NCBI GenBank assembly: GCA_016212295.1
Contig: JACRGO010000034.1
Coordinates: 1-18,064 of the forward strand
DNA from: Nitrospinota bacterium
GTDB lineage: Bacteria; Nitrospinota; Nitrospinia; JACRGO01
Direction of reading: 5' to 3'
Length of the DNA stretch: 18,064 nucleotides
Shown here: piece after piece, positions 3,317 through 16,853 of the stretch
Layout of the letters: each line of letters starts with the position of its first letter
How positions within the stretch are numbered: position 1 is the stretch's first letter
Program-made: the position numbers and the translations under genes
Notes under the pieces: model-generated
Database searches by the model: none
Seen by the model: the letters and a program-made list of their open reading frames with translations, nothing else
Told to the model about the DNA's origin: nothing

Positions 3317-3431
3317 ATTTTTTTCAGCTTTCAGTATTCAGCAAAGGCATGGCAAAACTAAAAAAACAAATCCCTGGCCGCTGATTGCTGTGCGCTGAAA
3401 GCTTTTTGTGGTTTTTCGCGTCAAATTCCAC

Positions 3432-3437
3432 TATAAT
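3432..3437 (+). promoter_or_regulatory. Perfect TATAAT -10 hexamer upstream of the secreted-protein gene; no convincing -35
   Basis: TATAAT 35 bp upstream of the ATG at 3472. Implies the inserted gene may have its own promoter. Confidence 0.25.
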
Positions 3438-3471
3438 TTTTTTGATTTATAAACGGAGAGAAGGAAGAAAG

Positions 3472-4560
3472 ATGAATGCCTTTAATGCATGTACAAAAAA
3501 TATCGGCATTGCCCTTCTTCTTTTCCTGCTGAACCTGGTTTCTTTTATTCCGGCTTGGGCGGAAAATTTCCCGGAGCCAAATCCTCCTCTGGAAGGCCCA
3601 CGGCATCTTGAGAAAAAGAAACCTTTGCTGGAAAGGAGGGCCTTGGGGGCCCCCACAACTGAGTGGACCTACCATAAAAACCAAAAGGGAACGCATCCAA
3701 GCAATCACGAACAGGCCCTTGTATGGCTTATGAACAACGCCAGGAAGGACCCGAAAGCGGAGGGAATTTTTTTAGCCGCCACCACGGATACCGACGTGGC
3801 AAATGCGCGCCAGTATTTTAATGTCAACGCCACGATGCTCAAAAGCGAATTCGCTAAACTTCAGAAAAGGCCGCCAGCGGCCTTTGACATACGCCTTTAC
3901 AATGCCGCGTACGAACATAACAAAATTATCATTAAAAAGGACCAACAAAATCATCATGACCCCACTTGGTCACTTTATGATAAAGCAGGATTTGCCAGAA
4001 GGACCGCTGGACAGAATGTATACGCTTATGGAAAAAGCGCCATTTACCTCCATGCGGGTTGGAACATCGACTGGGGGCCAGACGCCTATGGAAAAACCAA
4101 GGGTGGAATGCAGGGGAGCGACAGCTCCGGGCGGGGCCACCGCTCCAACCTGATGGACCAAACCAAATATTCGGCCAGCTATCCCTTCGCCAACGTTGGA
4201 ATTTCAGTGGAATCCGAAAGCAACTCCGCAACCCAGGTAGGCCCCTTGGTGTCCACGGCCGATTTCGCCAATGCCGATACAAGCAAAGCCAATCACTACA
4301 ATGCCTTTATCGTGGGCACGGTTTGGCGGGACACTAATAAAAACGGCGTTTACGATTCCGGCGAAGGCTTGGGGGACGTCAAGGTTATGCCAAACCAGGG
4401 GACCTTTTGGGCAAAGACCGCGAAAAGCGGCGGATACGCCATTCCCGTGACTTCACCAGGCGATTACAACATCACATTTTCCGGCGGACAGCTCACGGCA
4501 AAAAAAACAAAAAAAACAACCGTGGTTAGTGAAAGCGTGTTGCTCGACTTAACATTGTGA
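3472..4560 (+). CDS. Secreted CAP/SCP (YkwD-like) domain protein with an unrecognised C-terminal Gly/Thr-rich domain
   Basis: N-terminal signal peptide MNAFNACTKNIGIALLLFLLNLVSFIPAWA. HEQALVWLMNNARKDP and GRGHRSNLMD...NVGISV match the CAP/YkwD H-x-x-N-x-x-R and GHRxNIL...GVG motifs. GGAG RBS precedes the start. The ORF-track start at 3385 is an upstream extension. Confidence 0.65.
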   Translation: MNAFNACTKNIGIALLLFLLNLVSFIPAWAENFPEPNPPLEGPRHLEKKKPLLERRALGAPTTEWTYHKNQKGTHPSNHEQALVWLMNNARKDPKAEGIFLAATTDTDVANARQYFNVNATMLKSEFAKLQKRPPAAFDIRLYNAAYEHNKIIIKKDQQNHHDPTWSLYDKAGFARRTAGQNVYAYGKSAIYLHAGWNIDWGPDAYGKTKGGMQGSDSSGRGHRSNLMDQTKYSASYPFANVGISVESESNSATQVGPLVSTADFANADTSKANHYNAFIVGTVWRDTNKNGVYDSGEGLGDVKVMPNQGTFWAKTAKSGGYAIPVTSPGDYNITFSGGQLTAKKTKKTTVVSESVLLDLTL

Positions 4561-5525: not shown

Positions 5526-5546
5526 ATTGACAATTGACGATTGAAC
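5526..5546. repeat. Heptamer tandem array ATTGACA-ATTGACG-ATTGAAC (contains two phased TTGAC -35-like hexamers)
   Basis: Three consecutive 7-mers read directly from the sequence. Confidence 0.7.
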
Positions 5547-5554
5547 CTTAAACA

Positions 5555-5589
5555 TTAAATCTTAAATCTTAAATCTTAAATTTTAAATC
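5555..5589. repeat. Heptamer tandem array (TTAAATC)x5 immediately upstream of the 5594 ORF
   Basis: TTAAATC TTAAATC TTAAATC TTAAATT TTAAATC. Confidence 0.85.
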
Positions 5590-5593
5590 CCTT

Positions 5594-6274
5594 ATGCTGG
5601 CAAACAGAGAAATAAAAACGAGACTGGAAAAGGCTTTCCCTATAAAACAGGCGGTGGCGCTGGCCGATGTTTTTATAGAATTCAAGGGAGACCTTGTCAA
5701 GTCTGGAGATTTCAACGAGCTTAAAAATGTAGTAAAAGAACTTGCCGAGGCTCAGAAGCGGACAGAAGTAAAAATGGGAGAACTTGCCGGCGCTCAGAAG
5801 AGGACAGAAGTAAAAATGGAAGAACTTGCCGAGGCGCAGAAACGGACGGATTATGAACTTGTCCTCTTTCGCCGCACTTTTACCTCTCAGATTGGAGGGC
5901 TTGGGGCGCGATGGGGTATGATGACGGAATCGTCGTTTCGCAACGCCATGGAGGGAATACTGTCAGAAGTTGGGTTCAAGGCCGAGAGGTTCATAGCTAA
6001 AGACAAAAAGGGGACAGTTTTCGGGTATCCGGCGGAAGTGGAGCTTGATGTTGTCGTTAAAAACGGCAAGACCCTGGTCATTGAGATTAAATCCTCGGTT
6101 AGCCGGGCGGACGCGGCCTCCTTTGACAAGAAGGTAAGCTTTTACGAGAAGGAGACACGGCGGAAGGCTAGCAGGAAGATAATTATATCTCCTTATACCG
6201 AGCCCGCGGCCCATGACGCCGCCAAAAGACTGGGGATCGAGGTTTTTACTGATATAAATGACCCGGCTTTGTAA
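5594..6274 (+). CDS. Coiled-coil-repeat plus PD-(D/E)XK-like nuclease-fold protein (DUF3782-like), inserted between fabD and fabG
   Basis: N-terminal 14-aa tandem repeats [14 protein letters not shown] x about 2.6. C-terminal [24 protein letters not shown] fits the D...(D/E)xK restriction-endonuclease-like core. No fab-pathway role. Confidence 0.55.
5738..5850 (+). repeat. In-frame 42-bp tandem repeat (about 2.6 copies) inside the 5594-6274 CDS
   Basis: Units 5738-5779 and 5780-5821 are near identical. The third unit diverges after about 27 nt. Confidence 0.85.
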
Positions 6275-6285
6275 CACAAACCCAC

Positions 6286-6340
6286 AGCGCGACGTGGCCG
6301 CAACCAAAATAAATTTTCGATGCATTCAAACGTTTCATGA
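6286..6340. repeat. Second copy (about 85% identical, one indel) of the 55-bp element seen at 2132-2185. A degraded right-arm remnant may lie at about 6406-6431
   Basis: AGCGCGACGTGGCCGCAACCAAAATAAATTTTCGATGCATTCAAACGTTTCATGA versus copy 1. Both copies lie just after a stop codon and upstream of a fab gene. Confidence 0.75.
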
Positions 6341-6447: not shown

Positions 6448-6574
6448 TTATTTGTCATTTGGGATTTCGTTTTCATTTTGGTTGAAGCGAAACCGCGCCA
6501 GGAAGCTTTGTGTCCTGGTGGCTTCGTGGCATATTTTTAATTAGAATCTTAACTGAAAGAAAGGTTTACCGAAA

Positions 6575-7318
6575 ATGAGTCTCGAAGGAAAAACCGCGTT
6601 AGTCACAGGGGCAGGCAGGGGAATCGGCAAGGCGATAGCCCTTGCCTTGGCCAAGGACGGGGCGAACGTGGCCGTGTCCGATATAGACCAGGGTTCCGCC
6701 AACCAAACCGCTGAAGAAATCAAATCCCTTGGAAGAGGCTCCATTGGATTGAAAGCGGACGTGTCCAGGTCCGAAGAGGTGGAGGGGATGTTTCAGGCAA
6801 TTGTGGACAAATTCGGCGGGGTTGATATACTGGTGAATAACGCCGGGATCACCAGGGACGGGTTACTGGTAAGAATGAAGGACGAGGATTGGAGCCTGGT
6901 CATGAAGATCAATCTGGACGGGGCCTTCTATTGCTCCAGGGCGGCCGGCAAGATCATGATGAAGCAAAGAAGAGGGGCCATAATCAACATCGCCTCAATC
7001 GTGGGGGTCATGGGAAACGCGGGCCAGGTGAATTATTCCGCGTCCAAGGCGGGCCTGATCGGCCTGACGAAATCCAGCGCACGGGAGCTTGCCTCAAGAG
7101 GGGTCACGGTAAACGCCATCGCCCCGGGTTTCATCGATACGGCAATGACACAGGCCCTGAACGATAAGGTAAAGGAAAAACTGATGGAGCAGATCCCGCT
7201 GGGCCGCTTGGGCTCCTCGGAGGACATCGCGAACGCGGTCCTCTTCCTTGCGTCTCCGGAAGCGGCCTATATAACCGGCCAGGTGCTCCATGTGAACGGG
7301 GGCATGCTGATGGCGTAG
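6575..7318 (+). CDS. fabG: 3-oxoacyl-ACP reductase (FabG)
   Basis: LEGKTALVTGAGRGIGKAIA Rossmann motif and SDR catalytic S...YSASKAG. 247 aa. Confidence 0.93.
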   Translation: MSLEGKTALVTGAGRGIGKAIALALAKDGANVAVSDIDQGSANQTAEEIKSLGRGSIGLKADVSRSEEVEGMFQAIVDKFGGVDILVNNAGITRDGLLVRMKDEDWSLVMKINLDGAFYCSRAAGKIMMKQRRGAIINIASIVGVMGNAGQVNYSASKAGLIGLTKSSARELASRGVTVNAIAPGFIDTAMTQALNDKVKEKLMEQIPLGRLGSSEDIANAVLFLASPEAAYITGQVLHVNGGMLMA

Positions 7319-7331
7319 GATGAGTTGTGAT

Positions 7332-7373
7332 GGTTCAGGGTTCAGGGTTCAGGGTTGAAGGTTGAAGGTTGAA
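7332..7373. repeat. Heptamer array (GGTTCAG)x3-(GGTTGAA)x3
   Basis: Read directly from the sequence. Imperfect inverted partner (AACCCAG)x3 at 7473-7492. Confidence 0.85.
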
Positions 7374-7472
7374 AGGGCATAATCACGGCAATATTGCATG
7401 TTTTTTTTTAGGGCATTCCACCTCGGATATAGCGCCGCTAAATAAAAATCCGCGTGGGTACGGGCTTTCTGA

Positions 7473-7492
7473 AACCCAGAACCCAGAACCAG
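7473..7492. repeat. Heptamer array AACCCAG x about 3, imperfect inverse of the 7332 array (one mismatch per unit)
   Basis: CTGAAACCCAGAACCCAGAACCAG. Confidence 0.7.
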
Positions 7493-7556
7493 TTAACGTT
7501 TACAAAAATTTTTTAACTATTAAATTAACATAAAAATCTTTTAAAGGAGGAAAAGG

Positions 7557-7787
7557 ATGGATACAGCGGAAAAAGTAAAGAATATCATCATGGAGCAGCT
7601 TGGAGTCGAAGAAGGCCAAGTGACCTCCGAGGCTTCCTTTATTGACGATCTAGGCGCGGATTCCCTGGACACAGTGGAACTCGTCATGGCCTTTGAAGAG
7701 GCATTTGACATTGAGATACCGGATGAGGAAGCGGAAAAAATCATTACGGTAAAAGACGCAGTGGACTATATTGAGAAGCATGTATAA
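7557..7787 (+). CDS. acpP: Acyl carrier protein
   Basis: 76 aa with the DSLD phosphopantetheine-attachment motif. AAGGAGG RBS. Confidence 0.95.
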
Positions 7788-9861: not shown

Positions 9862-9872
9862 GACTGAAATCA

Positions 9873-9928
9873 GTGACAAGTGACGAGTAACAAGTGACAA
9901 GTGACAAGTGGCGAGTAACGAGTAAAAA
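9873..9928. repeat. Heptamer array A: GTGACAA GTGACGA GTAACAA GTGACAA GTGACAA GTGGCGA GTAACGA GTAAAAA
   Basis: Eight consecutive 7-mers. Preceded by TGACTGAAA. Confidence 0.9.
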
Positions 9929-9964
9929 ACGGAAAATGCCCCACTTGATCCATGCCTCTTGACA

Positions 9965-10237
9965 CTATCCCGAACAATTTATCTGATCCACTATAGCTGT
10001 AATGACCGAATGGACCGGCGCGGAGTCGTCTCCAAAAAGCTGCCTGGCCGCGTTCCCTTCCGGGGCAACCAGCACCGTGTCCCCTTCCCCTGCCTGCACA
10101 AAATCAACAGCCAGGAAGGAGCTTCCCGTTGGTTTCTGCTCCTGGTCCAGGGGCTGGACCACAAGGACCTTGTGCCCCTCGTAAGCCGGGTGCTTCAAGG
10201 TCGCGACGACATTTCCCAATACCTTGCAGATCAACAT
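9965..10237 (-). CDS. BMC vertex protein (EutN/PduN/CcmL family, BMC-P) copy 1
   Basis: MLICKVLGNVVATLKHPAYEGHKVLVVQP matches the PF03319 N-terminus. The ORF-track start at 10327 is an extension through the repeat array. Confidence 0.85.
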   Translation of the reverse strand: MLICKVLGNVVATLKHPAYEGHKVLVVQPLDQEQKPTGSSFLAVDFVQAGEGDTVLVAPEGNAARQLFGDDSAPVHSVITAIVDQINCSG

Positions 10238-10247
10238 TTTTTTCTTA

Positions 10248-10296
10248 GTGACCAGTGACGAGTAACGAGTGATCAGTGGCGAGTAACGAGTGACGA
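10248..10296. repeat. Heptamer array B1 (GTGACCA GTGACGA GTAACGA GTGATCA GTGGCGA GTAACGA GTGACGA)
   Basis: Seven 7-mers. Inverted partner B2 lies 24 bp away. Confidence 0.9.
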
Positions 10297-10320
10297 GTCT
10301 TAGAAGCATAGGTTTTTTAC

Positions 10321-10369
10321 TTGTCACTCGTCACTTGTCACTCGTCACTATTTATTTGTCACTCGTCAC
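10321..10369. repeat. Heptamer array B2 (TTGTCAC TCGTCAC TTGTCAC TCGTCAC TATTTAT TTGTCAC TCGTCAC), inverse of B1. The two form a palindrome of about 120 bp
   Basis: Reverse-complement orientation of B1. It contains the stop codon and last codons (..SSDE*) of the BMC-P gene at 10359-10637. Confidence 0.9.
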
Positions 10370-10637
10370 TGCTCCTTGCGTCTATATTGTCAACAATCCC
10401 GACGATACCGGCGTCTATGGGACTGAAGGTGTCCGGCAGAGTCAGGGCCGCCTCGCGTCCGACCACATAAGAGACGGTCTCGCCGATTCCGGCCTGTTGG
10501 GCGTCCACCATCACAAGAGGCTCTCCCTTGGGTTTTCGCTCGTGGTCCACCGGCTGCACCAGCAGGAGCTTGATTCCCTCCAGGCTTGGATGCTTCACCG
10601 TGGCCACCACCCGTCCTATTACTTTTCCTATGTGCAT
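10359..10637 (-). CDS. BMC vertex protein (EutN/PduN family, BMC-P) copy 2
   Basis: MHIGKVIGRVVATVKHPSLEGIKLLLVQPV. GGAG RBS. C-terminal tail encoded by repeat array B2. Confidence 0.85.
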   Translation of the reverse strand: MHIGKVIGRVVATVKHPSLEGIKLLLVQPVDHERKPKGEPLVMVDAQQAGIGETVSYVVGREAALTLPDTFSPIDAGIVGIVDNIDARSSDE

Positions 10638-10772: not shown

Positions 10773-10994
10773 CTACCGAGCCTTTTGAAAATGTTGCCAT
10801 GCCTCATCCTCCTCTGGACGGTTCCAATCTTCCGCGAGGGCTGTTTCGCTTAACAAGGCTTCCTCATTTACATGAATTAAAGGTTCCTCATCAAGAATCG
10901 TGACTAATGCACGGCAGGATGAAGACAGTTTAATCGGTTCAGACAACTTAATATTGCCTTTTAGATCAATTGTTGCTTCAAGTATGCGGACCAT
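10773..10994 (-). CDS. Small AF2212/AbrB-like, antitoxin-like protein (73 aa), orphan
   Basis: True start MVRILEATIDLKGNIKLSEPIKL...ALVTILDEE with AGGAGG 7 nt upstream; the ORF-track TTG start translates the RBS. C-terminal LSETALAEDWNRPEEDEAW resembles the tails of type II antitoxins that pair with PIN toxins. No toxin gene is adjacent. Confidence 0.4.
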   Translation of the reverse strand: MVRILEATIDLKGNIKLSEPIKLSSSCRALVTILDEEPLIHVNEEALLSETALAEDWNRPEEDEAWQHFQKAR

Positions 10995-11066
10995 ATTAGG
11001 CCTCCTTTTTTTCAAATAAATATGCTTTTATTTAATGAAATCAAATATACACATTTCTTGATAGAG

Positions 11067-11638: not shown

Positions 11639-11672
11639 CACGTTATCAGTTCACGGTTTACGGTTCACGGTT
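11639..11672. repeat. Heptamer array CACGTTA TCAGTT CACGGTT TACGGTT CACGGTT; left boundary of the four-helix-bundle cassette
   Basis: Inverse partner AACCGTG array at 12042-12069. Contains the stop codon of the 11665-12015 gene. Confidence 0.85.
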
Positions 11673-12015
11673 TTTTCAATGAATCATGCAAGGCTTGCAA
11701 CATTTTTGATATGGATTTCAACTCATTAATCAAACCTTTTGCGTCACTGTCGGAAAATACGTTAATTTCCCTTGAAATATAAACTTGTGTCCGCAGTTCC
11801 GCCGCCGAGCCTTTTGCAATGTTTATAAACCTTTGAAAATCTGGAACACTGTTTCTTTCGCACCCTTCCGCGATATTCGATGGAATAGATACGGATGAGC
11901 GCAACATTTGATCTTTCAGCCCATAATCACGGCAATCTTTTAATAATTTATAGAGGGTTACTGTCAGTCTGCAAGATTTTTTCCAAACTTCTAAATTCTC
12001 AAAGGAAGCGCTCAT
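11665..12015 (-). CDS. Four-helix-bundle protein (23S rRNA intervening-sequence protein / Avd-like family, TIGR02436-type), intact copy
   Basis: LEVWKKS...LKDQMLRSSVSIPSNIAEG..R.S..DFQRFINIAKGSAAELRTQVYIS matches the family consensus. Flanked by inverted CACGGTT/AACCGTG heptamer arrays. Confidence 0.85.
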   Translation of the reverse strand: MSASFENLEVWKKSCRLTVTLYKLLKDCRDYGLKDQMLRSSVSIPSNIAEGCERNSVPDFQRFINIAKGSAAELRTQVYISREINVFSDSDAKGLINELKSISKMLQALHDSLKKP

Positions 12016-12041
12016 AACCTTTTTCTATTTTCTGCTTCACC

Positions 12042-12069
12042 AACCGTGAACTGTGAACCGTGAACCGTA
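12042..12069. repeat. Heptamer array AACCGTG AACTGTG AACCGTG AACCGTA; right boundary of the four-helix-bundle cassette
   Basis: Reverse complement of the 11639-11672 array. Confidence 0.85.
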
Positions 12070-12090
12070 AACAATTTTCTTATTTTATGT

Positions 12091-13425: not shown

Positions 13426-13435
13426 TTGAATGATA

Positions 13436-13498
13436 GTGACTGAAAGATAGTGACAAGTGACAAGTGACAAGTGACGAGTGACAAGTAAAAAGTAAAAA
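13436..13498. repeat. Heptamer array C (GTGACTG..GTGACAA x3 GTGACGA GTGACAA GTAAAAA GTAAAAA)
   Basis: Inverted partner D at 13571-13619, 72 bp away. Confidence 0.9.
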
Positions 13499-13570
13499 CT
13501 TATAGCTCTTTGGGCGGACAAAAAAAATCAATGGCCAGGGATCAGTACCGGCTCCTGGATTCTTTTCTAC

Positions 13571-13619
13571 TCGTCACTCGTCACTTGTCACTCGTTACTG
13601 CTTCTCGGTAACTCGTCAC
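13571..13619. repeat. Heptamer array D (TCGTCAC TCGTCAC TTGTCAC TCGTTAC ... TCGTCAC), inverse of C
   Basis: Ends 4 bp from the aldehyde dehydrogenase stop codon. Confidence 0.9.
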
Positions 13620-13623
13620 TGCT

Positions 13624-15114
13624 TCAAACAATTCTAAACCTGTCCTTCAAAGTACAGCGGCGCTCCCTTGTGAAGTGGACGGCGGTGGTCAGGCCCTCTC
13701 CGGTGGGGCTGGCTATGGTGAAGGACGTATACCCTTCCCCGGTGAAGCCCAATCCGGCGTATGAAGGTCCGTTCTTCACGAAGATGGAGGTGTTGATTTC
13801 CCGCGCCATGCGGCTCAGCTTGTCGATGTTTCTGGAGTGCATCACCGCCGTGTGGCCGAACCCGTGCTCCACCTCCTTGGCCAGGTCAATGGCGGCGTCC
13901 GCGTCCTTGACCCTAACCAACGGAATCAAAGGCATGAGAAGTTCCATCTGGACAAAGGGATGGCCGGCGTCCGTCTCGGCGATGATCAACCGGATATCCT
14001 CCCCGACGTTGACGCCGATCTCCTTCAGGATAACCGCCGCGTCCTTTCCCACGAATTTCTTGTTAACCACTCCGTGGGAGCCGTCAACCGGCGGCTCCTG
14101 GATAATAAGCTTCCGCATCTGGCGGATTTGCTGCTGGTTCAACTCGTAGCAGCCGTTTCGCTTGAGGGCGGATTTCAGGGAATCCGCTATTGAGGCCACT
14201 GCTATGATCTCCTTTTCCACTATGCAGACCATGTTGTTGTCGAATGACGCGCCGTTTACTATGTCAACCGCCGCGTTTTCGATGTCCGCTGTCTCGTCCA
14301 CCACCACAGGCGGATTACCTGGTCCGGCGGCGATCACCTTCTTTCCTGAATTCATGGCGGCCTTGACCACCGCGGGTCCGCCGGTGACCACCAATAACCG
14401 TATGCCGGGATGCTCCATGAGTTCCCTGGCCGATTGAATGGTCGGCTCTGATATAGTGGTTATGAGGTCCCTGGGACCGCCCGCCTTGGCTATGGCCCTG
14501 TTGAGGAGATCGACTGAATAAATGGAGATTTTTTTAGCGGTCGGGTGGGCGTTGAACACCACCGCGTTTCCCCCGGCCAGCATGCTCACCGCGTTGTTGA
14601 AGATCGTCGCGAAGGGATTTGTGCATGGGGTGATGGACCCTATGACGCCGTAAGGGGCGCGTTCCACCAACGTGAGTCCGTTATCGCCCGTGTAGCTGAC
14701 TGGTTGCAGTATTTCCAGTCCAGGCGTTTTTTCTATTGACAACCTGTTTTTCAGCGCCTTGTCCTTGACCCGGCCCATGCCTGTCTCTGACACCGCCATC
14801 TCCGCGAGTTTTTGCGCCTCTTCCAGGGCGGTTGATCGCATGGAGGCGATGATCCCGCCACGAAGGGACAAGGGCATACTGCTAAGTTCCGCGAAGGCCT
14901 TCGCGGCGGCAAGGACCGCTGAATTAATATCGCCGAACACTCCAAGCCCCTCGCCCTTGCTTTCCTTAGCGGATGAGGACGGACAGCCGTGAGGCGGATT
15001 GAACGCCGCCTGGGGCTTCGAGGGACCTGGAGCGCTAATGGTCTGCCCGCTCCATATCCTTTCAGCAACCCTTCTCACTATTGAGGCAATCTGGTCTTCT
15101 GTAAGTTGTGTCAT
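13624..15114 (-). CDS. CoA-acylating aldehyde dehydrogenase (PduP/EutE-like BMC core enzyme) with N-terminal encapsulation-peptide-like helix
   Basis: 496 aa. ALDH catalytic region ...MVCIVEKE.../...GEGYTSFTIASPTGEG. N-terminal amphipathic EDQIASIVRRVAERI followed by a Pro/Ser/Gly linker before GVFGDINSAV. Confidence 0.88.
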   Translation of the reverse strand: MTQLTEDQIASIVRRVAERIWSGQTISAPGPSKPQAAFNPPHGCPSSSAKESKGEGLGVFGDINSAVLAAAKAFAELSSMPLSLRGGIIASMRSTALEEAQKLAEMAVSETGMGRVKDKALKNRLSIEKTPGLEILQPVSYTGDNGLTLVERAPYGVIGSITPCTNPFATIFNNAVSMLAGGNAVVFNAHPTAKKISIYSVDLLNRAIAKAGGPRDLITTISEPTIQSARELMEHPGIRLLVVTGGPAVVKAAMNSGKKVIAAGPGNPPVVVDETADIENAAVDIVNGASFDNNMVCIVEKEIIAVASIADSLKSALKRNGCYELNQQQIRQMRKLIIQEPPVDGSHGVVNKKFVGKDAAVILKEIGVNVGEDIRLIIAETDAGHPFVQMELLMPLIPLVRVKDADAAIDLAKEVEHGFGHTAVMHSRNIDKLSRMAREINTSIFVKNGPSYAGLGFTGEGYTSFTIASPTGEGLTTAVHFTRERRCTLKDRFRIV

Positions 15115-15121
15115 TGTCTAA

Positions 15122-15409
15122 TTACTTCTTAAACACCAACTTATCGTCGATGTCCCATTGGTCCACTATGGCCATTATGACAGCGTCTACTGGTTTATTA
15201 TTGGTTATGTCCGTTTGCCTCGCCGAACTTCCAGTGGCGTAGAGCACTATCTCTCCCTGGCCCGCGCCGACGGAGTCGGCCGCCACCACATAGTTCTGGC
15301 CGGCCTTCCCCCTGGAATCAACGCCAGCCACAAGCTGGAGCTTGAGGCCCTCCAGCTTAGGGTCTTTCTGGGAGGCGACAACCGTCCCAACCACTTTTCC
15401 GAATAACAT
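15122..15409 (-). CDS. BMC vertex protein (EutN/PduN family, BMC-P) copy 3
   Basis: [34 protein letters not shown] 8 nt upstream. The ORF-track start at 15445 would overlap the BMC-H gene. Confidence 0.85.
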
Positions 15410-15419
15410 GAGCGGTCTC

Positions 15420-15710
15420 CTATTCCGTAGCGTTCGAGCGCCCAAGCGGGAGGGCCTTGTCGATATTGAGGTGCGGCCTTGGAATCACGTGGACGGACAC
15501 CAACTGCCCGACCTTCTCAGCGGCGCGGGAGCCGGCCTCGGTGGCGGCCTTGACCGCCGCGACGTCTCCCCTCACTATGGCGGTGACGTAGCCGCCGCCG
15601 GTTTTTTCGTATCCGACCAACTCAACCTTGGCCGCCTTGACCATGGCGTCCGACGCCTCAACCATGGCGGTGAAACCCCGCGTTTCTATCATTCCCAATG
15701 CTTCAGCCAT
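15420..15710 (-). CDS. BMC-H hexameric shell protein (PduA/EutM-like)
   Basis: [56 protein letters not shown] is a canonical PF00936 sequence. GGAGG RBS. Confidence 0.93.
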
Positions 15711-15768
15711 AAAAAAACCTCCTTATAAAAAGTTAAATTAATAAAATTCGTAACTACTCATGTTATCC

Positions 15769-15839
15769 GGTTCAGGGTTCAGGGTTCAGGGTTCAGAGTT
15801 CCCGGTTGAAAGCTTTGTGGCCTTTGTGCCTTTGTGGTG
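15769..15839. repeat. Heptamer array (GGTTCAG)x4-like followed by the octamer-like repeat CTTTGTGG CCTTTGTG CCTTTGTG in the BMC-T/BMC-H intergenic gap
   Basis: Same GGTTCAG unit as at 7332. Confidence 0.8.
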
Positions 15840-15845
15840 AAAAAA

Positions 15846-16472
15846 TTATTTTTTCTTCAACGCCACTCCCTCCAAACCGGAAAGCGCGGTGATCGCGGCC
15901 TCCGCCGCTGAGTCTATTTCCGATTCCGACCCGGACATATAAAGCCTCCCATAGGCGCCGAAGGGACGCACCTCAACAAGTTTTACATTCGCCGCCTTTT
16001 CCGCCTCGTTCGCGCCGAAGATAACGTATCCGGCAGGCTCAGTCTCCAGTATGAAGAGCGATTCGCCCGGAAGGATCATGGACCCGCTCCGGTTACGATT
16101 GATAAGTTGGCATTGATACGCCTCCATCGCGCGGATGATCTGGTTTGAGACGATGTCCGGCTTGATCCGGTCCGACTCCTTGATCTCCAGGTAGTCCAGG
16201 ATGGACTGTCCCGCCAGCCTCACCTCCCCCTTGTCGTGCTCGTGGACTTCCAATACCCCGTAGGCCCGCTCCACGATCTGGACCGCCGGCTGGACCTTGG
16301 TGGCCTTCAAGGCCACATCCAGGACCTTGTTGATTGCGAGTCCGGGCGCTATTTCAACAAAGAGCGACGCCACTCCAGGCACCGGGAGGAACCCCTTGGC
16401 CGTGGACCCTATATAAGAGGCCAGTTGAGCTTGAAGACTGTCCAGAAAAACATAAGTGCGCAGGGTTATCAT
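15846..16472 (-). CDS. Permuted tandem BMC-domain shell protein (BMC-T, PduB/EutL-like)
   Basis: 208 aa with two permuted-BMC halves ([19 protein letters not shown]... and ...[30 protein letters not shown]...) paralleling the EutL architecture. GGAGG RBS. Confidence 0.7.
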
Positions 16473-16491: not shown

Positions 16492-16528
16492 AGTGACTAT
16501 AAAACCAGTGACCAGTGACGAGTAATTA
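16492..16528. repeat. Heptamer array E (GTGACTA...GTGACCA GTGACGA GTAATTA)
   Basis: Overlaps the stop codon of the 16526-16807 gene. Inverse partner F at 16827-16847. Confidence 0.8.
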
Positions 16529-16807
16529 GTTTGTGCTCCTCAAGGAGCGTTGTAAGCCAATAATCATTTTTGAAATTTCGTCCAGTTCTTCCAATAAACT
16601 ATTTTCAATTCGCGACTCCAGGAGTTGTAAATTTTTACTTATGATGATTTGTGTTTCCAGTTCCGCTATATTAGATGGAATGGATACGGCCGCTCGCCGC
16701 ATTTGGGATAGCAGGCCAAATTTCTCTTCCGAAGGAAAGGAAGCAATCTGTTCCACAAAGCTGATTGACCTTTTCCATACCTCCAGGCGCTTATGCGGCT
16801 TTCCCAT
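16526..16807 (-). CDS. Four-helix-bundle protein (Avd-like / 23S-IVS family), second copy with an internal deletion of about 20 aa; possibly degenerate
   Basis: MGKPHKRLEVWKRS...FGLLSQMRRAAVSIPSNIAE|LETQIIIS lacks the G..R.S..DF..F..IA.GS segment present in the copy at 11665-12015. True ATG at 16807 with GGAGGG RBS; the track start at 16840 is repeat-derived. Confidence 0.65.
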   Translation of the reverse strand: MGKPHKRLEVWKRSISFVEQIASFPSEEKFGLLSQMRRAAVSIPSNIAELETQIIISKNLQLLESRIENSLLEELDEISKMIIGLQRSLRSTN

Positions 16808-16826
16808 GAAATCCCTCCCTTTTAAC

Positions 16827-16847
16827 TCGTCACTTGTCACTCGTCAC
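16827..16847. repeat. Heptamer array F (TCGTCAC TTGTCAC TCGTCAC), inverse of E
   Basis: Read directly from the sequence. Confidence 0.85.
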
Positions 16848-16853
16848 TATCTT

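Follow-up and report, generated by a model that had tools for sequence, protein, structure and literature searches.

We found that the heptamer arrays of GGTTCAG and GGTTGAA units in an 18,064-nucleotide stretch of a Nitrospinota bacterium genome (GenBank assembly GCA_016212295.1, contig JACRGO010000034.1; "the window" hereafter means this whole stretch) probably belong to a class of intergenic foldbacks with tandem-heptamer arms, an architecture that also brackets PF05635 genes. On this account the element at 7328-7492, in the fabG-acpP spacer, would be a gene-less decayed copy, and the array at 15769, in a spacer of a bacterial microcompartment (BMC) operon, a half-site. PF05635/TIGR02436 is the "23S rRNA intervening-sequence protein" family, also known as S23p, IVP or "four helix bundle protein" (family search), and is kin to Avd of diversity-generating retroelements (PMC10053308). 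The closest solved relative is XCC0516 (2GSC), which was deposited with five chains and has been described as a homopentameric toroid (PMC4990558). That the same kinds of arrays bracket PF05635 genes is a clue absent from an earlier note on this DNA, which had connected the arrays with highly expressed genes.

We confirmed the arrays, which are intergenic and specific to a period of seven. In the fabG-acpP spacer, sequence reading and Tandem Repeats Finder (TRF) place 3.6 copies of GGTTCAG at 7332-7356 with 100% matches, beginning 14 nt past the fabG stop codon (7316-7318) and continued to 7373 by three copies of GGTTGAA. An inverse array is also present, as the earlier note had stated, and ends 64 nt before the acpP start (7557); its copies do not amount to a clean three, since TRF reports AACCCAG in 2.6 copies at 7473-7490 and inclusion of the preceding degenerate unit (7469-7492) brings it to 3.5. 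At the second site, between a BMC-T-like gene (15846-16472) and the BMC-H gene (15420-15710), 4.7 copies of GGTTCAG at 15769-15801 are followed by a single GGTTGAA (15804-15810) and by 2.9 copies of CTTTGTGGC at 15813-15837 (TRF), with the array lying 58 nt from the BMC-H start codon. Because the BMC genes are on the minus strand, their mRNA would read CTGAACC repeats here, in the orientation opposite to that of the fabG-acpP site.

We next counted period-7 arrays in the window by the number of positions identical to the base 7 nt downstream. At a threshold of at least 20 there were 8 arrays versus 0.03 expected from 100 dinucleotide shuffles, all of them intergenic, and at a threshold of at least 16 there were 11 versus 0.48 expected; periods of 5, 6, 8 and 10 showed no excess in the same shuffle test. 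All of the strong arrays (11/11) lie in the non-coding 17% of the window, and nearly all spacers longer than ~50 nt carry heptamer arrays, mostly as inverted pairs and in two main unit families, with the foldback architecture recurring at six or more sites. The proposal of a general heptamer repeat system resembling the short tandemly repeated repetitive (STRR) sequences of cyanobacteria is thereby borne out. The 7-nt units run head-to-tail without spacers, unlike CRISPR arrays, which have repeats of ~23-50 nt and unique spacers. The arrays also break short-read assemblies: two contigs of the same organism from Logan run SRR12113407, both 100% identical to the window, terminate inside the (CTGAACC)4 array of the 15769 site (L206) and inside the 5' arm of an IVP cassette (L219).

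Two of the inverted pairs in the window bracket PF05635 genes, one in each unit family. The GGTTCAS family comprises a complete cassette around a PF05635 gene (11642-12072), whose arms thus share their unit family with the GGTTCAG arrays, the gene-less 7328-7492 element and the solo 15769 array. The AGTGACN family comprises a second PF05635 cassette (16504-16848), a gene-less foldback (13435-13620) and a hairpin at 10247-10371 with a third arm at 9871-9930. The coordinates of these features are collected in the table.

Table. Heptamer arrays, foldbacks and PF05635 cassettes of the window (RBS, ribosome-binding site; HMM, hidden Markov model; IVS, intervening sequence)
Position	Strand	Feature	Evidence
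7331..7353	+	5' foldback arm (GGTTCAG)3, pairs with the 3' arm	TRF; 21 outer pairs in the fold
7353..7375	+	(GGTTGAA)3 extension, unpartnered in the 3' arm; makes a -35-like TTGAAG hexamer	sequence, TRF, fold, promoter scan
7376..7467	+	non-coding core/loop of ~92 nt, no IVP remnant	sequence; six-frame IVP HMM search
7468..7492	+	3' arm CTGAAAC CCAGAAC CCAGAAC CAG, imperfect reverse complement of the GGTTCAG array	sequence, TRF, fold, duplex
15769..15810	+	solo (GGTTCAG)4.7 plus one GGTTGAA, no inverted partner in cis	sequence, TRF, fold
15813..15837	+	(CTTTGTGGC)2.9, second repeat family	TRF
11642..12072	-	complete IVS-type cassette: (GGTTCAC)5 arm, RBS, PF05635 gene 11665-12015, (GTGAACC)5 arm overlapping the stop codon	
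16504..16848	-	second cassette: PF05635 gene 16526-16840 between (AGTGACN) arms	
13435..13620	-	gene-less AGTGACN foldback between aldehyde dehydrogenase and rnfC-like genes, stem of ~45 bp	fold z -7.66
9871..10371	-	AGTGACN hairpin 10247-10371 plus third arm 9871-9930 beyond the eutN gene (9965-10237)	fold z -9.54
5526..5589	+	(ATTGACN)2.7 and (CTTAAAT)6 arrays directly upstream of the inserted PD-(D/E)XK/DUF3782 gene	TRF

Upon folding the elements, we observed that the arms of the fabG-acpP element (7328-7375 and 7462-7494) form a duplex of -32.6 kcal/mol versus -16.7 +/- 3.7 for shuffled arms (z -4.3; 1 of 2000 shuffles as good). The whole element (7326-7494) folds with z -1.9, and its outer stem of 21 pairs joins 7331-7353 with 7468-7491 in three 6-bp helices split by single mismatches. 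The other inverted pairs of the window are stronger: the region 13430-13625 on the minus strand has a fold z of -7.7 and an arm duplex z of -9.1, the region 10240-10378 on the same strand has a fold z of -9.5, and arm duplex z-scores across the other window pairs are -8.7, -6.3 and -9.1. The fabG-acpP element is therefore a weak member of the foldback class, with short helices and its GGTTGAA half unpartnered. Within its core, nine consecutive T (7401-7409) stand 3 nt downstream of the palindrome GCAATATTGC (7388-7397), a weak-terminator-like arrangement that the terminator scan did not call. An Rfam scan of the window (E <= 1) returned spurious microRNA-precursor matches on long hairpins only, and no rRNA.

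We then compared the same spacers among close relatives, and found that neither the 7332 nor the 15769 array is conserved, as relatives with the same genes have empty spacers or different repeats. Between fabG and acpP, the closest relative by FabF (L001, 94% identical to the window) has a different, CTTTGCG foldback (z -5.7), related to the CTTTGTGGC repeats of the 15769 site. L205 (86%) has a 75-nt spacer with four GATTNNN heptads after the stop codon, L204 (83%) a spacer of 65 nt, L002 (83%) no array, and L003 (80%) GGTTCAA arrays at the same position, which are unpartnered. The part common to these spacers is the ~65 nt adjoining acpP, and the window element lies upstream of it. No clear target-site duplication is seen in the empty-site alignments, and the core of 7328-7492 is not repeated in the 18-kb window. 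Farther upstream, after fabD, L001 carries a heptamer array of ~55 copies (2179-2590; ATTGAAC/ATCGAAC, then GAGAGTC and ACTGACT), whereas the window has only ~9 copies of other units at that site.

In the BMC operon, two relatives were compared at four spacers (aldehyde dehydrogenase 81% identical in L209 and 77% in L207). Between rpiR and BMC-T, both the window and L209 have an array-IVP-array block and L207 has an empty spacer of 20 nt. Between RnfC and BMC, the window has an IVP with CGGTTCA arms, L209 an unrelated IVP (21% identity) with GATTTTW arms, and L207 a frameshifted IVP with GATTTTW arms; at this L207 site (7065-7596) there are two copies of the 5' arm (ATTTTAGATTTTTGATT), ~130 nt from each other, and the PF05635 frame is broken. 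The spacer between aldehyde dehydrogenase and RnfC holds a gene-less AGTGACN foldback in the window, a gene-less foldback of the same family in L207 and only 4 nt in L209. Finally, the BMC to eutN spacer is long in the window and contains the AGTGACN hairpin, is an empty 11 nt in L209, and holds a gene-less GGTTCAA-type foldback in L207. Whole array-gene-array blocks, and gene-less foldbacks as well, thus come and go between relatives at shared operon spacers, and the comparison of the three operons shows that arms travel with their IVP gene. Insertion polymorphism is therefore observed both in the BMC operon and across the fabG-acpP spacers of five relatives. The second window IVP (16526-16840) lacks ~27 residues relative to its L209 ortholog (851-1216), including part of the conserved central segment, and looks like a decaying copy. 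Read together, the BMC operons make plausible a decay series in which an intact gene would first be damaged and then lost, leaving a gene-less foldback.

Next, we investigated the flanks of PF05635 genes across bacteria, using a set of 84 genes made up of the window genes and 80 genome loci (one genome per species, found with the window IVP as query at 56-84% identity). The 80 loci span Desulfobacterota, Planctomycetota, Verrucomicrobiota, Lentisphaerota, Chlorobium, Gallionella and others. The gene moves horizontally, since the IVP is 56-84% identical across phyla and no named taxon has a housekeeping FabF closer than ~68%. By strict criteria, 57 of the 84 IVP genes (68%) have a heptamer array no farther than 100 nt away, on one side or both, versus 66 of 366 controls (18%; Fisher's test, p-value = 2.6e-18), and 26/84 have arrays on both sides versus 10/366 (Fisher's test, p-value = 1.9e-13). 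Of the arrays in this survey, 80% lie outside open reading frames (ORFs). The IVP gene is co-oriented with both neighbours in 62 of 75 cases, which places these genes inside host transcription units. Read in the gene's orientation, the cassette consists of a G/T-rich heptamer array, 10-30 nt with a ribosome-binding site, the ORF, and a reverse-complement array at or overlapping the stop codon. The G/T-rich arm comes first in 29/29 cassettes; we considered this polarity as evidence of strand and set it aside as uninformative, since a perfect inverted repeat reads alike on both strands.

The arm unit tracks the clade of the IVP protein, being common to 85% of IVP pairs at 70% identity or above and to 1% of pairs below 40%. 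Additionally, the other arrays of a locus match the unit of the resident IVP in 46 of 111 cases versus 19.7 expected (a level reached in 0 of 1000 permutations). The degenerate order of heptad variants is the same in close IVP homologs from different phyla, indicating inheritance and not fresh slippage. Arms within one mismatch of GGTTCAG were found in nine IVP elements and of GGTTGAA in seven, and a Riemerella plasmid IVP has GGTTCAA/GGTTTAA arms. In the closest IVP homologs (L004-L020), the 5' arm often has a GTAACCGTTCACGGTTAC-like outer end, a small local hairpin that has its mirror image at the outermost part of the 3' arm and may be the true terminus of the element. When the window proteins were looked up by exact match, BMC-H and IVP matched only contigs of the same organism (run SRR12113407) and FabG had no match, so that the look-up did not reveal the same IVP in any second genomic setting.

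Similar results were observed for plasmid genes annotated as "four helix bundle protein", an independent set in which abutting tandem arrays, mostly heptamers, flank 7/8 genes and are inverted in 5/8. Plasmid PF05635 genes are concentrated in Nostoc, Calothrix and Anabaena; one is flanked by cas6 and cas4 and another by cmr2 and cmr3, positions that match an earlier report of four helix bundle genes inside cas loci (PMC3936711). Furthermore, an Azospirillum IVP copy lies inside a 23S rRNA gene with the same kind of inverted heptamer arms, which indicates that classical IVSs and operon cassettes share one architecture. In the literature that we searched, the Coxiella IVS was the only one for which heptamers were mentioned, and nothing linked PF05635 in general to heptamer arrays.

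The element at 7328-7492 has inverted arms made of heptamers and no PF05635 ORF between them, and the 15769 array has no inverted arm; because both sites lack that ORF, we file them as gene-less or half derivatives and not as full members. In the model that we favour, 7328-7492 would be an IVS-type foldback that carries no gene, has partly decayed and was inserted after the fabG stop codon, ahead of the conserved acpP leader, and 15769 would be an unpaired half-site. Both sites would form part of a fast-turnover selfish repeat system tied to PF05635 genes and would not be dedicated switches of acpP or of the shell gene. Arrays would grow and shrink through replication slippage, and the gene-less foldbacks may derive from, or spread together with, PF05635 cassettes. 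In the fab operon transcript the paired arms would form an imperfect double-stranded RNA stem that RNase III could cut, separating the fabG and acpP messages, by analogy with the Coxiella IVS. By the same analogy the stems of ~45 bp are very likely RNase III substrates, and it is uncertain whether the stem of three 6-bp helices at 7331-7491 is one. The effect on the host is probably small, since the element is not conserved among relatives. The earlier suggestion of a role in transcript processing survives in part, in that paired arrays can form long stems and the Coxiella IVS offers an analogy, whereas tests for selection at the RNA level were negative or weak. A shared RNA-level role at both sites is not supported, given the opposite orientation of the arrays and the absence of predicted structure at 15769 (z +0.77).

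Several observations weigh against this model. The core of the fabG-acpP element (7376-7467) contains no PF05635 ORF or remnant (six-frame IVP HMM, best E = 0.19), and the search for IVP remnants in gene-less cores likewise found nothing. Its whole fold is marginal, since 8 of 200 shuffles do as well, and the three GGTTGAA units, half of the 5' array, are unpartnered. The 15769 array has neither predicted structure (15711-15845, minus strand) nor a partner, and a search for a cis partner gave good matches solely on the non-transcribed strand of the other operon. L003 and L205 have unpaired arrays at the corresponding site near fabG, which simple slippage repeats would explain equally well. Across stems, mismatches are not biased to sense-strand G.U (30 versus 45, p-value = 0.11), 107 of 182 are of the transversion type, and an element's own arms pair only slightly better than those of sister elements (p-value = 0.015), a difference confounded by arm length; these negative or weak tests give no support for selection on RNA pairing. 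On the Pseudanabaena plasmid NZ_CP112875.1 (L213, 45877-47015), the IVP between cas6 and cas4 is flanked by direct and not inverted arrays, (AAAGCTA)14 upstream and (AAAGCCA)10 downstream. Because the 80 genome loci were picked via IVP itself, the fraction of arrays that are IVP-linked is not derivable from them. The elements are also not known to have a mobility mechanism.

Metagenomes bear on the same point, since 0 of 120 contigs with an exact (GGTTCAG)3, the prokaryote-like ones included, encode an IVP. We therefore rejected the idea that a GGTTCAG unit is usually an IVP arm. Most heptamer foldbacks are accordingly not IVP cassettes, and a derivation from cassettes would be a matter of inference. 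Prokaryote-like contigs repeatedly show a stop codon, (GGTTCAG)n, a short loop and (CTGAACC)n without a gene, indicating that foldbacks of the GGTTCAG unit family are widespread in their own right. As a separate observation, GGTTCAG rotates to TTCAGGG, which differs by a single base from the plant and algal telomere repeat TTTAGGG, and many of the (GGTTCAG)3 matches (L084-L203) are eukaryotic telomere-like satellite, on contigs from a few lake samples that consist almost wholly of GGTTTAG/CCCTAAA-type repeats.

Among the alternatives, plain slippage would make the arrays microsatellites of AT-rich or unconstrained spacers with no element identity or function, and the inverse array at 7469-7492 incidental. 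It draws on the unpaired arrays at 15769 and in L003 and L205, on the hugely variable copy number after fabD (~55 in L001 versus 9 in the window), and on the report that among long repeats of prokaryotes no class is more frequent than heptanucleotides (Mrazek et al. 2007, summarised by PMC4679880). We consider it improbable, however, because the arms of 7328-7494 are complementary beyond chance (1/2000 shuffles), the foldback architecture recurs in unrelated contigs as well as within the window, blocks of array, gene and array come and go as units, and IVP homologs in different phyla keep one order of degenerate heptads. Less probable still is a dedicated cis-regulatory signal for acpP and BMC-H, acting as promoter, attenuator/terminator or mRNA stabiliser and selected on account of their high expression. 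Both arrays do lie ~60 nt upstream of a start codon, the GGTTGAA-derived TTGAAG stands 17 nt from CATAAT (7355-7383, 9/12 matches), a second promoter-like match occurs at 7499-7526 (9/12), and the core of the fabG-acpP element has the weak hairpin and T9 run. At 15769, however, the scan (15650-15900) found no promoter- or terminator-like site, and none of the terminator type was found within 7332-7492; the orientation relative to transcription differs between the sites, relatives with the same genes have different arrays or none, and no Rfam family matches. The promoter architecture suggested by the earlier note thus comes down to two weak matches at 7332, one of them made by the GGTTGAA units, and its link with highly expressed genes is not supported because arrays also stand beside IVP, eutN, rnfC-like, aldolase and PD-(D/E)XK genes, many of the array-flanking genes not being highly expressed.

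A further alternative, compatible with the IVS-type foldback model, is that the heptamers are DNA or RNA sites for a repeat-recognising protein, the candidate being the PF05635 pentamer with one heptad per subunit. In that case the resident IVP, the one with GGTTCAC arms, would target the 7332 and 15769 arrays in trans and so influence transcription, translation or recombination nearby. Arms conserve a periodic core (RGTT in one, AACY in the other) and not exact complementarity, the unit co-varies with the IVP clade and is shared by other arrays of the locus, XCC0516 has the pentameric form described above, and two papers independently postulate an unidentified heptamer-binding protein (PMC4679880; bioRxiv 10.1101/2022.06.06.494920). 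Five heptads are also the modal 5' arm length (28/85), with more than five in only 5/85 and exactly five in 14 of 18 elements of the window clade. Covariation of unit and protein is, however, equally expected from co-inheritance within a cassette, and the two arrays have 6 and 4.7 units of mixed types and are not conserved in relatives. We also considered five heptads per pentamer as a general rule and rejected it: striking in the window clade, it fails across protein clusters. Overall we regard the binding-site explanation as possible though doubtful. An extension that we put forward only tentatively, and with somewhat more reserve, is that PF05635 proteins might be sequence-specific heptad-repeat binders that travel with and seed their own arrays, so that STRRs, the TAACTGA repeats discussed below and the GGTTCAG and AGTGACN arrays would be their footprints or trans targets; if true, this would be a protein-plus-repeat mobile system without a recognisable transposase.

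Turning to the remaining features of the window, the plus strand carries in order yceD, rpmF, plsX, fabH, an SdrD-like ORF, fabD, a PD-(D/E)XK/DUF3782 ORF, fabG, acpP and fabF. The minus-strand BMC operon comprises an rpiR-like gene, IVP, BMC-T, BMC-H, eutN, aldehyde dehydrogenase, an rnfC-like gene, IVP, a tandem BMC gene, a small ORF, two eutN genes and a class II aldolase gene. The PD-(D/E)XK/DUF3782 gene (5594-6274) lies between fabD and fabG, where the relatives L001-L003 have a response-regulator gene, and contains a 42-nt tandem repeat in 2.7 copies (5736-5847). The SdrD-B/CarboxypepD_reg-like ORF (3385-4560) inside the fab operon is present in L002 too. A non-heptamer repeat family is represented between plsX and fabH by CATGTCCGCAACCAAAATAAATTTCT and its inverse (2139-2164 / 2248-2273), 96% complementary and 83 nt apart, for which Rfam on 2132-2279 gave a spurious microRNA match only; a related CCGCAACCAAAAT inverted pair (6287-6313 / 6472-6498) lies downstream of the PD-(D/E)XK gene. 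The BMC locus has three eutN/ccmL genes, all on the minus strand (9965-10237, 10359-10637 and 15122-15445). The adjacent two are 47% identical and separated only by the AGTGACN hairpin, with the stop codon of the upstream copy inside the array. Finally, an 80-aa ORF (10773-11015) between the tandem BMC gene and eutN has no family match.

Decades of cataloguing intergenic heptamers such as STRR and TAACTGA have yielded neither an accepted origin nor an accepted partner protein. A heptamer-binding or heptamer-spreading factor has been called for (PMC4679880; bioRxiv 10.1101/2022.06.06.494920), and the association of PF05635 with arrays supplies a concrete candidate for it. It also links rRNA intervening sequences with cassettes in fab, BMC and cas operons. 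The elements account for the isolated "four helix bundle protein" genes described within CRISPR-cas loci, and they would put structured double-stranded RNA into polycistronic messages.

When the elements are set beside known systems, several partial likenesses emerge. The STRR heptamers of heterocystous cyanobacteria are reportedly intergenic, strain-variable, of several unit families and often capable of forming stem-loops, and the window arrays are likewise dispersed intergenic tandem heptanucleotides in several unit families. Unlike the STRR hosts, the window's host is not a cyanobacterium, its nearest named relatives being Nitrospinae, Nitrospirota and Thermodesulfovibrionales metagenome-assembled genomes, and its units differ from the canonical ones of STRR1-3; no link between STRR and PF05635 was found in the searched literature. 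Correia/NEMIS elements of Neisseria, REP/BIME and ERIC are small gene-less intergenic foldbacks co-transcribed with their neighbours, and Correia hairpins are RNase III substrates that alter mRNA stability. Unlike the window elements, they have unique-sequence arms, many near-identical copies and no four-helix-bundle gene. Drosophila Foldback (FB) transposons have inverted arms of short tandem repeats and variable arm length, and many of their copies are non-coding; they are eukaryotic, far larger and encode unrelated proteins, so that the likeness is one of form only. The fabG-acpP element is also small (165 nt), without an ORF and bounded by terminal inverted repeats, as in miniature inverted-repeat transposable elements.

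The TAACTGA repeats of Beggiatoaceae, Cyanobacteria and Bacteroidetes occur intergenically in 2-6 copies with a patchy distribution suggesting horizontal spread, are mostly unpaired and end a few nucleotides from start codons (MacGregor 2015, PMC4679880). The window arrays, in contrast, are mostly inverted pairs, have GGTTCAG/GGTTGAA units and stand ~60 nt from the start codon (64 and 58). Twelve IVP elements nonetheless have arms within one mismatch of TAACTGA, one of them (L026) an exact (TAACTGA)6. In the 23S rRNA of Coxiella burnetii, the IVS carries a decaying S23p ORF, a 28-bp inverted-repeat stem and tandem GACAGAT heptamers whose copy number varies between strains, and RNase III cleaves at the first repeat, within the heptamer-containing stem (PMC4990558). 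The window elements differ from such classical 23S rRNA IVSs in lying between protein-coding genes, in mRNA spacers of the fab and BMC operons, with no rRNA in the window (Rfam) and no ORF at the 7332 and 15769 sites. They resemble the IVSs with S23p of Coxiella burnetii and Leptospira (PMC4990558) in the inverted-repeat stem, the variable heptamers next to a PF05635 ORF, the decay of that ORF and a selfish or near-neutral character.

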